This document shows positions 3,728 through 52,040 of a stretch of 64,000 nt of DNA, one piece after another. A program made the translations under genes and the position numbers. Positions within the stretch are counted from its first letter, which is position 1. Each line of letters starts with the position of its first letter. This stretch comes from Octopus vulgaris (lineage: Eukaryota): positions 30,938,001-31,002,000 of the forward strand of contig OX597836.1 in NCBI GenBank assembly GCA_951406725.2. The letters are read 5' to 3'. The notes beneath the pieces are model-generated. The model did not search any database. It saw only the letters and a program-made list of their open reading frames with translations, and was not told the DNA's origin.

Positions 3728-4039
3728 AATTAAAATCAAAATAAGCAACAAGGATATCCAGAGGTAATGCAGTATGATCGTTTCATGCAACTCCATTTAA
3801 TTGAACAATGCAATCATTACATCAATTTAAAATGTAGAGCAATCTTCAGCTGCACAAAGACAATAGAATTTAGTTAAATTAGAACAGATGGACACATTAG
3901 TATAATTATACCTAAAATCTCCAAGAAGTTAAGGAGATAGACAAAGAACATGTTGTACTTACAACAGCATAGCCATCTGTTCTAATTTAACTAAATTCTA
4001 TTGTCTTTGTGCAGCTGAAGATTGCTCTACATTTTAAAT
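3728..4039. mobile_element. Penelope-like terminal fragment with a partial inverted duplication (67-bp arms 3825-3891/3973-4039)
   Basis: Exact inverted arms; carries a hammerhead motif; abuts a TA/TG microsatellite; the same family recurs at 51917-52040. Confidence 0.6.
3768..3854 (-). ncRNA. Type I hammerhead motif with a long stem II (one stem III mismatch)
   Basis: Minus strand TGCAG CTGAAGA TTGC...(long irregular hairpin)...GCAT GAAAC GATC ATA CTGCA. The related copy near 51988 reads GAAACGATTGTACTGCA, so the consensus is GAAACGATCGTA CTGCA. Confidence 0.7.
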
Positions 4040-4356
4040 GTGGTTCCAAGTTCAGTCCCAGTGCTTTGCACCTTCTGCAATTGTCTTCTATTATAGCCTC
4101 GAGCTGACCAAAACCTTGTGAGTGGATTTGGTAGACAGAAACTGAAAGAAGCCAATTGTATGTGTATATATATATATATATATATATATATATATATATA
4201 TATACGGGCGTGTGTGATTGTGTATAGAATATATTAATAAAAGGAATTCCAACCTTGTCTGATTTTCACGTTTTATTTACTATCTTATAATGATATAAGA
4301 TAATATAATATAATAAAATAAAATAAAATAATAGAATGTTAAATGTTCATTCTGAT

Positions 4357-4401
4357 TGAACTAGTACTTTCATGCATTAAATTCTGCAATCTTCAGGTTC
4401 A
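4357..4401 (-). ncRNA. Minimal type I hammerhead ribozyme motif with a fully canonical core
   Basis: Minus strand reads TGAAC CTGAAGA T TGCA gaatttaa TGCA T GAAA GTAC T A GTTCA: stem I TGAAC/GTTCA, core CUGAAGA, stem II TGCA/TGCA, GAAA, palindromic stem III AGTACT, predicted cleavage after CUA. Confidence 0.8.
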
Positions 4402-5083
4402 TGAAGTAGTGGTGACAGTCATGCTTCACAATTTATATATATATATATATATATATACATATGTATGTATATGGGTGTATATATATATATATGTATGCAT
4501 GTATGTATGTATGTATTGTTTACTGATACTTGATATATCTGTGTATCAGGGAAAGCAAACATGTGCATGTGTGTGTATGTGTGCACTTGAAGGATGAAAA
4601 AAAAAATTCAAGACCCATTAGTATTGAATAACAGCAAAACACATATTTAAGTATATGGACACACACACATGCGCACGTGCCTAGATAAGCACACCCATTT
4701 TTTTTTTTCATTCTGCTTTCATACCCACAACTGAATCATGTACCATTTCCTGAGCTTGTGGAAGAGAGAGAGAGAGAGAGAGAGAAAGTGTGTGAAGGAG
4801 AGAGAGAGAAACAGAAAAAGAGAAAGTGGTGGTGGTGGTGATAGAGGTCTTGTACTGTAAATGAAGCTGTCAATAAAGTATGGAATTCTCTCAGAGTGGT
4901 TTTTTTTTTCAGTGTCATATATAGAATAAGTGTTTCATATAAAAAGAAAACATGGTATTTTCCAAATGTCTACAAGTTTGAGTTGTTGCTTATAAGATTC
5001 ATATTTTTGAATTCTTTTTTATTCTTAGCAATCTCATATTTTTATCGAGATGTTAACACATGTCAATATTTTTCAACTACACA

Positions 5084-5375
5084 CTACTCTTTCGCATCGA
5101 GAGATCACATCTCCAGTACTACGGACATTTGATTAGAATTTCGCAAGCTAAAATCAGAAGATGGAGTCTTCTATCCAAAGCAACCAGCAGGGGACCTAAG
5201 GGCAGACCAAGGTCGAGATGGTAGGATAATATCCGGGATCTCAGTTGGTCATGCTTAGGAATCCATTTGAAAAATATAATGACATCTGCTTCTGATAGAA
5301 CACTTTGGAGCAGCTGCTTGAGGACTCCACCCCAAGAATACTGGGCAGAGAAGATGGCTGGGTGGGTGAATGACA
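5084..5375 (+). mobile_element. 5'-truncated RTE-clade LINE, C-terminal fragment (related remnant ~54770-54990 on minus)
   Basis: LLFRIERSHLQYYGHLIRISQAKIRRWSLLSKATSRGPKGRPRSRW*DNIRDLSWSCLGI...DRTLWSSCLRTPP, a typical RTE C-terminus with an internal stop. Confidence 0.85.
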
Positions 5376-49408: not shown

Positions 49409-50767
49409 TAAGCCTTTCACTGCAAAATTAAATTTCATTGTTATTCTAGTCATGATGTTAAGTATCTACCAAAAAATAGAATTGTTATTTTCTGTAAGGC
49501 ATATTCTTTTCTACTCTAGGCATATAAGGCCCGAAAGAGGGGGCTAGTCGATTAGATCAACCCCAGTACGCAACTAGTACTTAATTTATCAATCCTGAAA
49601 GAATGAAAGGCAAAGTTGACCTCTGCAGAATTTGAACTGAAAAAATCATTCGAGCAAGGTCATTGCCAGTGCCACTGGACTGGCTCCTGTGCAGTTGGTA
49701 CATAAAAAGCACCATTTGAGCGTGGCCGTTGCCAGTACCGCCTGACTGGCCCTCGTGCCGGTGGCACGTAAAAGCACCCACTACACTCTCGGAGTGGTTG
49801 GCATTAGGAAGGGTATCCAGCTGTAGAAACTTTGCCAGATCAGATTGGAGTTTGGTGCAGCCATCAGGTTCACCAGATCTCAGTCAAATCGTCCAACCCA
49901 TGCTAGCATGGAAAACGATGATGATTGATGTTAAGACGGATGAAATACCTCAAAGCATTTCGCCTGGCATGCTAACGTTTCTGCCAGCTCACCGCCTATG
50001 GCATATTGCCTCAAAGATAGTATATCTCAAAAAAAAAAAAACAGCTTTAAACATGACATTCCTCAACAAAAGATAGATTGGAATATAAAACCGCTTTTTG
50101 TAAGTTAAGGGTAATGAAACTTTAATTGGATATATCTGATTTTTGCAGTAAAACGGTTAAAATCAAAGTAGGGGACATTGGATAATGTGGTCCTGAATTC
50201 AGTATATCTGAAAAGAAGTAGGATAGTCATGGTTGGACTATCTTTGATCACAGGTTTGATGAGGGGTCCCTTAACTTGTTTACTGCAAAATTAAATTTCT
50301 TCATTATTCCAGTAATGATGTTAAACATCAACCAGAAAATAGAATTGGCATTTTCTGCAAGTCTTGTTGCCTCAGTAAACTTGACATATCTCAATAGAAA
50401 ATAGTTTCAAACATGACATTTTTCATCAAAAGATAAATTGGTATATAAAAAATAAGGCGGCAAGCTAGCAGAATCGTTAGCATGTCGGGCGAAATGCTTA
50501 GCGGTATTTCGGCTGCCGTTACGTTGTGAGTTCAAATTCCGCCGAGGTCGACTTTGCCTTTCATCCTTTCGGGGTCGATAAATTAAGTACCAGTTACGCA
50601 CTGGGGTCAATGTAATCGACTTAACACCTATCTCTGTCCTTGTTTGTCCCCTCTATGTTTAGCCCCTTATGGGTAATAAAGAAATAGGCATATAAAAACT
50701 GCTTTTTGCAGTTATGGTTAATGAAATTTTGAATGGGTATATCTGATTTATGCAGTAAAAGGGTTAA
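49409..50767. mobile_element. Two adjacent diverged copies of a TTAA MITE, each interrupted by SINEs
   Basis: actgcaaaattaaatttc...gcagtaaaaSggttaa at ~49409-50160 and ~50271-50767. The first contains SINE B (TSD ggcatatt) with family E nested inside; the second contains SINE B 50455-50688. Confidence 0.7.
50455..50688 (+). mobile_element. tRNA-derived SINE family B, full length (other copies ~6690-6910, 19793-20010, 22202-22431, 56690-56920 on minus; 38840-39010 on plus)
   Basis: A-box TAGCAGAATCGTTAG, B-box GAGTTCAAATTCC, conserved gcctttcatcctttcggggtcgat block; flanked by a ggYatataaaaa direct repeat. Confidence 0.9.
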
Positions 50768-50904
50768 TTTAGTAAAATCTCTTCTTAATGATGTCATACA
50801 CTTATACAACATAGTGATCCAATAACTATTTTAATTTAATTAATAACGGCAATGTACTTGCATAGCAAGTGATTTGATCTGAGATCGTGTGCTGAAATTA
50901 AAAC

Positions 50905-51204
50905 AATTGCAGCGTGGAAGGTGTTTGTAAGCCATTTAAGAAACACACAAAAGCCGTTCGATTCACTTCAACATTTAAGTTTAATTTGTCAAAATATTTT
51001 CGTCGCTTTAAGACCGTGACCTGTTCACTGACAAAAATCCGTGCTGCATCTGAGCTCAGATGCAGCATGGATTTTTGTCAGTGAACAGGTCACGGTCTTA
51101 AAGCGACGAAAATATTTTGACAAATTAAACTTAAATGTTGAAGTGAATCGAACGGCTTTTGTGTGTTTCTTAAATGGCTTACAGACACCTTCCACGCTGC
51201 AATT
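50905..51204. repeat. 300-bp palindrome with no spacer
   Basis: Centre ctgag|ctcag at 51054/51055; the arms are reverse complements with about two mismatches seen by eye. Confidence 0.95.
51074..51124 (+). ncRNA. Hammerhead-like motif with a G3-C8 swapped core (mirror copy at 50985-51035 on minus)
   Basis: TTTGTCA GTGAACA G GTCAC ggtcttaaa GCGAC GAAA ATAT T T TGACAAA: 7-bp stem I, core GUGAACA instead of CUGANGA, stem II 4/5 paired, GAAA, palindromic AATATT stem III. Confidence 0.65.
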
Positions 51205-51916
51205 TGATTAATGAAATATGGATATGATCAGAGTAAACTGCAAACTGAATTCTGAGGTGGAGTAATGGTATCATGTAGTTGGTTGAATCAAACTTCAATA
51301 CATGTTTTTTGTGTTTCTTTACATCTGTTTCTGTTCTCTTAGGAACAGGTGTGGCTGTGTGGTTGAGAAGCTTGCTTCCCAGTCATGTGGTCTTAGGTTC
51401 AGTCCCACTGTGTGGCACCTCAGGCAAGTATCTTTTATTACAGCCCAGGGCTAACCAAAGCCTTGTGAGTGGATTTGGTTGACGAAAACTGAAAGAAACC
51501 CACTGAGTGTGTGTGTTAGTTTGTGTGTGTGTGTGTGTGTGTGTGTGTGTAACCTTGTCTAGACATCATTTGGTGGTTGTAAATGAGCAGCTCAGCCATG
51601 CTTCCATGGGTCAGTCAGAATTTGGTGAGGTAGTTTTTCTACACCTAGATGCCCTTTCTGTCATCAGTCCTCAGCTTTTTTCAAGCGAAGTAATATCTCC
51701 CCGTGGCCAGATATGTCTTTCATGGACAGTTAGAAACGAAGGAAACCGTTTCTGCAATGATGACTCTCATTTACAACTGTTGCAGGATGTCAAAACAGAC
51801 AGACAAGCAGACAGATACACACATGCATGCATGCGCACACCCACACACACCTACATAAATGTGTGTGTGTGTTTATACATACATACATACATACGTACGT
51901 ACGTACGTACGTATTT

Positions 51917-52040
51917 ATAACCAAAATAAGCAACAAGGATATCCAGTTGATGTAATGTTTGCATTGTTCAATTAAATGGAGTTGCTTGAAACGATTGTAC
52001 TGCATTACCTCTGGATATCCTTGTTGCTTATTTTGATTAT
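51917..52040. repeat. Short inverted-repeat remnant of the 3728-4039 family
   Basis: caaaataagcaacaaggatatccag ... ctggatatccttgttgcttattttg enclosing the 3' half of a hammerhead (GAAACGATTGTACTGCA). Confidence 0.8.

Follow-up and report, generated by a model that had tools for sequence, protein, structure and literature searches.

Hammerhead ribozymes are nearly universal in canonical Penelope-like elements (PLEs) and are slow in vitro. Minimal type I hammerheads (min-HHRs) were described in the pseudo-LTRs (pLTRs) of metazoan PLEs by Cervera and De la Pena (2014; PMC4209133). The motifs analysed here, starting from a 64-kb stretch of the Octopus vulgaris genome (the window), share with these min-HHRs a short stem I, an extra base after A9 and a stem III that is palindromic or absent. 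They likewise form heterogeneous families within one genome, dispersed as mostly single, truncated copies and as opposite-strand pairs. A natural U3–A8 core variant is common to both (four in 600 kb of this genome). In contrast, the fixed G3–C8, U6 and C9 cores of the octopus families that we designate H, G and H2, respectively, are not found among the min-HHRs in the accessible part of PMC4209133; file 2 of that paper holds no octopus entry. By extrapolation the octopus genome carries ~8 × 10^4 strict motifs, against ~9,000 in Xenopus tropicalis (PMC4209133), the two numbers coming from different descriptors.

The Hydra, Neptune and Nematis clades of PLEs with a C-terminal endonuclease, including Hydra-1_oBim (Craig et al. 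2021; PMC8557442), share with the octopus elements the targeting of (TA)n, 5′ truncation, inverted adjacent copies and a Zn-finger-like linker before the GIY-YIG domain. File S2 of that paper lists the hammerhead of a Hydra PLE from octopus, and its stem III letters are those of our family C. The Hydra-clade motifs listed there have a U-U closing, as do octopus families A, B and I, and every core in the table is C3–G8 with A6, unlike H and G. The general picture drawn in the initial annotation was thus already known, because dense and diverse PLE hammerhead families have been published (PMC4209133; PMC7229834), one octopus example included. A multitude of repeat families with hammerheads next to TA tracts is what PLEs are expected to leave.

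Departures from the canonical core have precedents. The natural variants U3–A8, A6C and U10.1–U11.1 (Perreault et al. 2011, PMC3088659; Naghdi et al. 2020, PMC7151607) share with the octopus families a compensatory change at 3–8, a pyrimidine at position 6 and the U-U closing of stem II (A, B and I). These are single microbial or phage examples, and neither G3–C8 nor U6 is named in the accessible parts of the two papers, whereas the octopus variant cores have become fixed in families that number from hundreds to more than ten thousand copies. A6C strongly slows Mg2+-dependent cleavage (PMC7151607). Cleavage by the hammerhead of the Anolis Poseidon PLE needs protein, and hammerhead mutants left insertion in vitro unaffected (Frangieh et al. 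2024; PMC11167929). An engineered C3G/G8C exchange, a laboratory control in that work, partly rescues Poseidon cleavage; family H has this pair naturally. The non-LTR retrozymes of Cervera and De la Pena (2020; PMC7229834), with more than 6,000 motifs in 16 families in one coral, have short tandem hammerhead units in common with the 166-bp arrays of family H. They differ in having canonical loop–loop motifs and circular RNAs, while the octopus motifs belong to the minimal type, stand mostly alone and are associated with coding PLEs. A preprint argues for a derivation of animal retrozymes from PLE pLTRs.

Hammerhead motifs in the window

The eleven hammerhead sites proposed in the initial annotation lie exactly at the positions given. 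A strict descriptor finds three matches in the window (35184 and 4396, both on the minus strand, and a further one at 3209, minus strand) compared with none in ten local dinucleotide shuffles. A narrower descriptor gives one perfect match against none in 40 shuffles and, with one mismatch allowed and a score of at least 6, three matches where 12 shuffles average 0.25. Controls with a mismatched core return 0 matches in the window and in 400 kb. The motif frequency in the window is therefore above that in dinucleotide-shuffled sequence. A 600-kb sample of the genome contains 18 strict matches belonging to three core classes, compared with 2, 0, 0, 0 and 0 in five shuffles. The proposed density of one motif per 5 kb holds only for pieces recognized by homology in the window, a selected stretch (18 in 64 kb); elsewhere, the same families leave 41 homology pieces in 600 kb. 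Among the Rfam matches listed (150 of 175, E ≤ 1) there is no hammerhead family. The matches listed are microsatellite look-alikes.

Motifs, positions and excess over chance thus stand, while most window copies are decayed rather than intact. Only two of the eleven pass the strict descriptor, namely the intact family B hammerhead at 4357–4401 (minus strand), which lies in the 3′ pLTR of a PLE, and the family F copy with an intact core at 35154–35188 (minus strand). Three carry the variant core of their family together with a flawed stem: family G at 41735–41770 (minus strand), a PLE 3′ pLTR with the family-wide U6 core, the element having a CxxC linker and a GIY-YIG domain, and two family H copies with the swapped G3–C8 core at 50985–51035 (minus strand) and 51074–51124 (plus strand). 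These form the left and right arms of the palindrome 50897–51212, and the same mismatched stem II pair is present in both arms. The remaining six have lost bases of the core or the pair that closes stem III, often at CpG sites. Family A at 3767–3855 (minus strand; element 3729–4039 with an inverted piece at 3973–4039) has a canonical core, a U-U closing and a 6-nt palindrome, and here lacks the stem III closing pair. Family C, an old family, reads A at both G8 and G12 at 11133–11192 (plus strand). Family D reads A at G12 at 15154–15199 (plus strand), within the inverted duplication 14944–15255, the second arm of which is without most of stem II. Family E at 17081–17173 (minus strand), with (TA)n at both ends, is without the 3′ half of the core. 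Family F is decayed at 21380–21414 (minus strand), in an ~200-bp element flanked by (TA)n tracts, and reads A at G12 at 25235–25269 (minus strand).

Further pieces accompany these sites. The strict match at 3209 belongs to a candidate hammerhead, I (3140–3214, minus strand), with a canonical core and U-U at 10.1/11.1; an inverted piece of its 3′ part, 98% identical, follows at 3287–3412, and no second copy was found among the loci searched. A second family D copy at 17411–17555 (plus strand) has a damaged core and a deleted stem III/I region. The 3′ part of a second family A piece, without the 5′ core half, adjoins a TA-rich tract at 51947–52043 (plus strand). An inverted pLTR fragment of H2, the sister PLE of H, lies without a hammerhead at approximately 20634–20825 (minus strand).

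Repeat families and their coding partners

The initial annotation counted at least seven distinct families, and all eight that it cited turn out to be genome-wide dispersed repeats whose family-level sequence contains a minimal type I hammerhead (640–3,284 first-look candidates per family). The hammerhead is visible in the majority sequence of A, B, E and F; for C and D, where the decayed query biases the majority, we deduced it from the alleles of individual copies. The canonical core C3 U4 G5 A6 N7 G8 A9, G12 A13 A14, A15.1–U16.1, H17 is present in A, B, D, E and F, for which intact natural copies were found, with a long stem II in E. The core of C comes from alleles alone, G8 being seen in 6 of 25 copies picked with a bias to the query allele. 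Copies of B are 99–100% identical, making it a very young family. A CUGANGA core had been ascribed to all families; G instead has CUGUNGA and H has GUGAACA. Differences in stem sequence between families had been likened to covariation. For unrelated families we rejected this argument as circular, and paired changes are found solely in the homologous pairs F/G and H/H2.

Insertion is biased to (TA)n strongly in F, G, E and B and moderately in A, H and C, and the bias is absent in D. A (TA)4 tract lies within 30 nt of the 3′ end in 23/25 copies of F, 23/25 of G, 19/22 of E and 12/19 of B, in 9/25 of A, 5/23 of C and 6/25 or 9/24 of H, and in 1/26 of D, with a background of 5.9% at random positions. 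Likewise, (TA)4 is found within 40 nt of an end in six of the ten cited insertions (B, E, G and three times F, counting the H palindrome once), so that the statement that most carriers abut TA tracts is correct for these and not for A, C, D and H. The inverted duplications noted in several carriers are borne out and are a mark of D and H, with an inverted copy upstream in 23/26 copies of D and in 13/25 and 15/24 of H. Truncated (5′), tandem and inverted insertions all occur. The 5′ ends of B, G and H are staggered. Most F and G copies are ~200-bp units flanked by TA on either side, and their 5′ ends recur. Head-to-tail arrays of a 166-bp H unit occur in two loci (L200 and L236, with 30 units in L236). 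This is an unusual form for every family, most copies being single or inverted. The label retrozyme-like suits only these occasional arrays.

Extension of individual copies links the hammerhead to PLE RT and GIY-YIG frames in B, H and G and, weakly, in C. The motif lies in the 3′ pLTR in sense orientation, ~0.4 (B), ~0.5 (G), ~1.0 (H) and ~0.5 kb (H2) past the stop codon. In B, sense matches end 380–400 nt upstream of the motif in 8 of 25 loci, and the protein has DKG, CX4CxxC and GIY-YIG motifs, with matches to GIY-YIG (E = 1e-5) and RVT_1 (E = 1.3e-6, slightly under the curated cut-off). In H, remnants of the frame are found upstream in two of four extended loci and, conversely, of 30 loci with the endonuclease 28 have the motif ~1 kb further downstream; one frame runs for 1,025 codons without a stop (GIY-YIG, E = 1.8e-5). 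The H and H2 proteins have a DKS motif and a CX3-4CxxC linker, and in elements picked by protein alone (H and H2) the motif is at the expected place. An endonuclease shared by five loci, two of them overlapping (L323, L074, L377, L381 and L382), and scoring below the Pfam cut-off (E = 0.004), is upstream of G, and a Hydra-clade-like endonuclease end is upstream of C in 2 of 25 loci. The 25–30 best-match loci searched for each of A, D, E and F revealed no coding partner, and none was seen for I. A Hydra-type frame near F in L240 was rejected as its partner: a long (TA)n separates the two and there is no second F within 5 kb downstream. Apart from an 18-residue H2 piece, the 64-kb window contains no PLE frame. 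Calling the elements non-coding was nevertheless an overstatement, as the repeats are likely to be truncated copies of coding elements and the carriers 3′ pLTR remnants of PLEs; of the readings in the initial annotation, that of PLE termini is thus supported. Long H copies have a branch-point-like word, a pyrimidine run and an AG ~15 nt before stem I, which might represent a retained intron. Of 54 pattern matches to the H protein in metagenome contigs none was confirmed as a relative, so that this search showed no core of a related element from another animal.

Variant cores in families G and H

To judge from their sequences, two abundant families, G and H, carry fixed non-canonical catalytic cores, which the initial annotation had overlooked. 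The G3–C8 swap of H has 749 exact matches, with 0 for a reversed-pattern control. G3–C8 is present in 95 of the first 100 matches and C3 in none; both bases have changed to complementary partners, so that 3–8 pairing is kept, and the other core positions are canonical. H2, 55% identical to H, keeps C3–G8, the pair being exchanged between the two. H2 is very young; its position 9 is C and its stem III is not palindromic. A mismatched G3–G8 occurs in 4 of 118 H copies, at three separate insertion sites, and the core and stems of H are not clearly better conserved than the flank. Further G3–C8 families with other stems are limited to one weak singleton among the searched loci and 0 in 600 kb. Literature searches for natural G3–C8 or A6U cores, the coverage of which leaves out Lunse et al. 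2017, returned only engineered uses or other molecules.

The U6 core of G has 12,797 matches (reversed-pattern control, 0), and U6 is present in 97 of the first 100, where N7 and N17 vary. In this genome and in the contigs of four runs, G subfamilies differ solely at these freely variable positions. Among 19 copies chosen by their 3′ flank alone, conservation is 0.93 for the non-CpG core and 0.96 for the stems, compared with 0.77 and 0.88 for the flanks, and U6 is kept in 17 while N7 and N17 vary, which argues for selection on the G fold. Between the homologous families F and G the outer stem I pair is swapped: of 102 F/G motifs, 49 combine U6 with C–G and 32 combine A6 with G–C.

Stems I and II pair in the descriptor matches, stem I is open-ended and, judged by eye, no loop 1 is seen, making the motifs minimal; the palindromic stem III would permit a dimer. 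Local fold probabilities are at least 0.91 for B, D, H and H2. Stem I is poorly populated in F (0.01), G (0.19) and E (0.00), and the probability of stem II is low in A. The predicted dimer helix ranges from −10 to −0.2 kcal/mol across families, with −0.2 for H, and is +1.4 for H2. For minimal type I hammerheads of this kind, slow cleavage of tandem transcripts as a dimer, 3′ of N17, is predicted.

Origin and significance of the elements

The explanation that we favour, with a probability of roughly 0.9, is that the repeats are 5′-truncated 3′ ends (pLTRs) of at least eight separate PLE families, each with a minimal hammerhead predicted to cleave slowly as a dimer. The GIY-YIG endonuclease of the element would nick (TA)n or AT-rich DNA, and reverse transcription would begin at the 3′ end and usually halt within 100–300 nt, such that the pLTR alone remains. 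Template jumps may give rise to the inverted arm, and inserted copies would decay, mostly at CpG. In a head-to-tail transcript two hammerheads could pair via the palindromic stem III, probably assisted by protein. H and G most likely retain the fold with reduced cleavage, which probably does not limit the rate of their spread.

Chance look-alikes in AT-rich repeat DNA might be suspected from the failure of most window copies in the strict descriptor and from the Rfam matches listed. This is refuted by the excess over shuffles in 600 kb, by the mismatched-core and reversed-pattern controls (the latter 0 against 749 and 12,797) and by motifs at the expected place in protein-defined elements. An origin of some families (A, D, E, F and the H arrays) as non-autonomous elements or retrozymes in their own right, each propagated via a short and perhaps circular RNA of its own instead of by truncation of long elements, is unlikely. 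The ~200-bp F and G units with recurring 5′ ends, the H arrays and the preprint derivation of animal retrozymes from PLE pLTRs fit such an origin, but B, G and H run on into coding PLEs with staggered 5′ ends, copies are mostly single or inverted rather than tandem, and the motifs are not of the canonical loop–loop retrozyme type (PMC7229834). The H array unit includes the TA spacer, and tandem expansion at the DNA level is therefore equally plausible.

Within the PLE explanation, our tentative reading, at somewhat less than even odds, is that the fixed G3–C8 of H (sister H2 C3–G8) and U6 of G, with its many diverged subfamilies, are cores known from mutagenesis that putatively still cleave, in a tuned-down form. 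Another possibility, also well short of probable, is that the G, H and H2 cores are catalytically dead or irrelevant and are only carried along by active elements for which cleavage is unnecessary. The G3–G8 subfamily at three sites, the A9C and non-palindromic stem III of the youngest family, H2, and the weak dimer helix of H point in this direction, as do insertion in vitro without cleavage (PMC11167929) and the much slower A6C reaction in Mg2+ (PMC7151607). Against it, the 3–8 changes in H are complementary in an otherwise canonical core, G subfamilies vary only at N7 and N17, and cleavage is partly recovered in engineered C3G/G8C mutants, including one of a PLE hammerhead.

In the one reconstituted system the PLE hammerhead is dispensable for insertion. 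The natural pairs H versus H2 and G versus F have defined core differences, yet all are at high copy number, and cleavage assays could therefore show whether spread tracks activity. Descriptors that fix C3, G8 and A6 miss G and H, one of which accounts for a third of the strict matches in the sample. A natural G3–C8 pair would add evolutionary support for the tertiary 3–8 base pair beyond U3–A8. If these assignments are true, a genome with roughly 10^5 motifs would amount to a mutational scan made by nature across the hammerhead core, and octopus PLEs would make it possible to test directly if the ribozyme is needed by PLEs.

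Hammerhead repeats in the window and across the genome

The assembly around the window comprises 2.8 Gb in 227 contigs, and a protein labelled Octopus vulgaris is matched in it with 100% identity across 107 residues, which points to an octopus as the host. The window itself is AT-rich, abounds in microsatellites and short repeats, and holds no long coding frame. Tandem arrays lie at 32720–33212 and 47281–47799 (184 bp unit, part of a very common SINE-like repeat), 59452–60786 (308 bp) and 43561–43943 (21 bp).

The hammerhead sites of the initial annotation, all of whose coordinates are exact, belong to eight distinct families, each a dispersed repeat: A (at 3768), B (4357), C (11133), D (15154), E (17081), F (three copies), G (41735) and H (two arms, 50985–51035 and 51074–51124). 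A strict type I descriptor that permits U-U closing of the stem gives three matches in the window and none in ten local dinucleotide shuffles, bearing out the expected excess over chance; mismatched-core control patterns give no match in the window. As individual hammerheads the cited copies fare less well, since two of the 11 satisfy the descriptor and nine do not: six are without a core base or the closing pair of stem III, and three combine a variant core with a flawed stem. The third strict match, at 3209 on the minus strand, had been overlooked and marks a ninth candidate, I (3140–3214, minus strand), with an inverted piece at 3287–3412 and no second copy in the examined loci. Natural intact hammerheads are present in families A, B, D, E and F, and that of C is inferred from alleles across copies; scoring was limited to the best 40 candidates per family, and the picked copies are thus biased to the window copy. 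No hammerhead occurs among the 150 of 175 Rfam matches listed for the window.

Genome-wide density was sampled in 60 stretches of 10 kb at round coordinates. These 600 kb contain 18 descriptor matches in three core classes (eight canonical, that is C3–G8 with A6, six U6 and four U3–A8) and one further match outside them, while five shuffles gave 2, 0, 0, 0 and 0 matches for the three classes. The density of one strict motif per 33 kb extrapolates to about 8 × 10^4 in the genome (Poisson range about 5 × 10^4 to 1.3 × 10^5). The selected window is richer than average, with 18 homology pieces of its families in 64 kb against 41 in the 600 kb elsewhere. Descriptor matches from all loci, 311 in number, cluster into 27 groups, of which 13, 15, 22 and 26 were judged to be false or duplicates of another family. 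Families of the known U3–A8 variant, the class of 4/18 strict matches in the sample, are seen at loci L250, L407, L078, L013 and L044.

Minimal motifs, many families per genome, natural U3–A8 cores and low dimer activity have been described, with about 9000 motifs in Xenopus (PMC4209133); a coral has over 6000 motifs in 16 families (PMC7229834). Other known work includes PMC3088659, PMC7151607, PMC8495972, PMC3884650, PMC11662667, PMC6765202 and bioRxiv 10.64898/2026.07.22.740005.

Penelope-like coding frames and insertion pattern

The proposal that the repeats are termini of Penelope-like elements (PLEs) is supported, with coding PLE frames upstream in families B, G and H. In B such a frame, with DKG, a CX4CxxC linker and GIY-YIG and RT matches, is found in 8/25 loci and stops about 400 nt short of the motif. 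For H the endonuclease frame was reached in two of four extended long copies, and among 30 loci retrieved with the H endonuclease protein 28 carry the H motif some 1 kb downstream of that frame; many of the more diverged matches are on contig C16. One H locus has a stop-free frame of 1025 codons whose initial residues derive from an inverted piece, so that it is taken as near-complete. In G one and the same endonuclease, scoring under the Pfam cut-off, precedes the motif at five loci, of which two overlap. C shows an endonuclease end in 2/25 loci that by eye resembles Hydra-1_Obim. No coding link was found for A, D, E and F in the examined loci. An open Hydra-clade PLE frame of 955 codons with DKT and CxCX5C is present at L240:1814–4678 (+), with no hammerhead downstream by descriptor search. 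At L286:5507–5962 (+) a nuclear-receptor-type zinc finger exon, identified by eye, lies about 5 kb downstream of a Hydra PLE frame.

PLE clades, a (TA)n bias and inverted copies are on record (PMC8557442). Adjacency to TA tracts, scored as (TA)4 at most 30 nt from the 3' end (background 5.9%; copies without a found end word left out of the denominators), is confirmed for F (23/25), G (23/25), E (19/22) and B (12/19), with A (9/25), H (6/25 and 9/24) and C (5/23) lower, and fails for D (1/26). Inverted duplication similarly holds for D (upstream inverted copy in 23/26) and H (13/25 and 15/24), the remaining families having 0–4. H also forms retrozyme-like 166 bp head-to-tail arrays, with 30 units at L236 (G000:C2:17908090–17913080) and another array at L200, every unit including a short TA spacer. 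The majority of short H copies start at or close to the AG preceding stem I, as if copied from spliced or processed RNA. At L319, L195 and L224 a branch-point-like word, a pyrimidine run and an AG lie about 15–45 nt ahead of H stem I.

Variant cores of families H and G

The H pattern with positions 3 and 8 free has 749 exact matches (reversed control, none); the first 100 listed have G3 in 99, C8 in 96, both in 95 and C3 in none. Counting each array once, 118 distinct copies comprise 107 G-C, four G-T, four G-G and three others. Four runs assigned by label to four further organisms, examined as contigs that lose rare variants, show no letter change of at least 5% at either position. H2, a sister family with 55% identity to H over 815 residues, is very young, with open frames of 1311–1312 codons and 4.6 kb tandems (L363–L365, L333–L362); a fragment lies at window 20634–20825. 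Its motif is built like that of H, with C9 and a non-palindromic stem III, and keeps C3–G8, so the G3–C8 of H is most likely derived.

For G, the pattern with positions 6, 7 and 17 free has 12 797 exact matches (control, none), and the first 100 listed show U6 in 97, all four bases at N7 and two at N17. Among 19 copies chosen by their 3' flank alone U6 occurs in 17, with conservation of 0.93 in the core and 0.96 in the stems versus 0.77 and 0.88 in the flanks, in a small set that mixes subfamily change with decay. In four runs N7 and N17 vary, with no variation of at least 4% at U6. Family F is homologous to G, from which it is set apart by A6 and by a swap of the outer pair of stem I; the 600 kb sample holds one G-type copy bearing A6. 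C is found at position 4 in about 11/49 F copies (L131–L155 and others), perhaps a U4C subfamily.

The H and G cores could be dead or could retain attenuated but real cleavage. Against a strict need for the H core stand a G3–G8 mismatched subfamily at three separate insertion sites (L322, L323 and L324, contig C16) and the conservation pattern within H, where the core is not clearly better conserved than the flank and differences concentrate in loop II. An engineered C3G/G8C pair gives partial rescue, and cleavage is protein-assisted and dispensable for insertion in vitro (PMC11167929). On balance putative attenuated activity is somewhat ahead.

Predicted folding and origin of the repeats

Fold predictions give high occupancy of stems I and II for B, D, H and H2, but low occupancy of stem I for F, G and E and of stem II for A. 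In no family is an intramolecular stem III predicted to be stable, and predicted dimer helices range from −10 kcal/mol (A and E) to −0.2 (H) and +1.4 (H2). These predictions would fit dimer-dependent, slow or protein-assisted cleavage, and the H and H2 ribozymes may be very weak.

From their anatomy and published PLE behaviour, the repeats most likely arose when target-primed reverse transcription of PLEs halted early. Such a halt would leave the 3' pseudo-LTR with its ribozyme, often within (TA)n and often beside an inverted partner. Single inserted copies would then decay, and the ribozyme would work only in tandem transcripts from source elements.

The hammerhead repeats are a real feature of a known kind, most probably PLE termini. 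An octopus Hydra hammerhead is on record in PMC8557442, the one source on octopus Penelope-like hammerheads in our literature search, and every core tabled there is C3–G8. No natural G3–C8 or A6U core appears in the literature searched; the extensive PLE variant survey of Lunse et al. (2017) and other supplements lie outside that search and may include them. What is probably new is the fixed G3–C8 and U6 cores, which make these PLE hammerheads worth a bench test.
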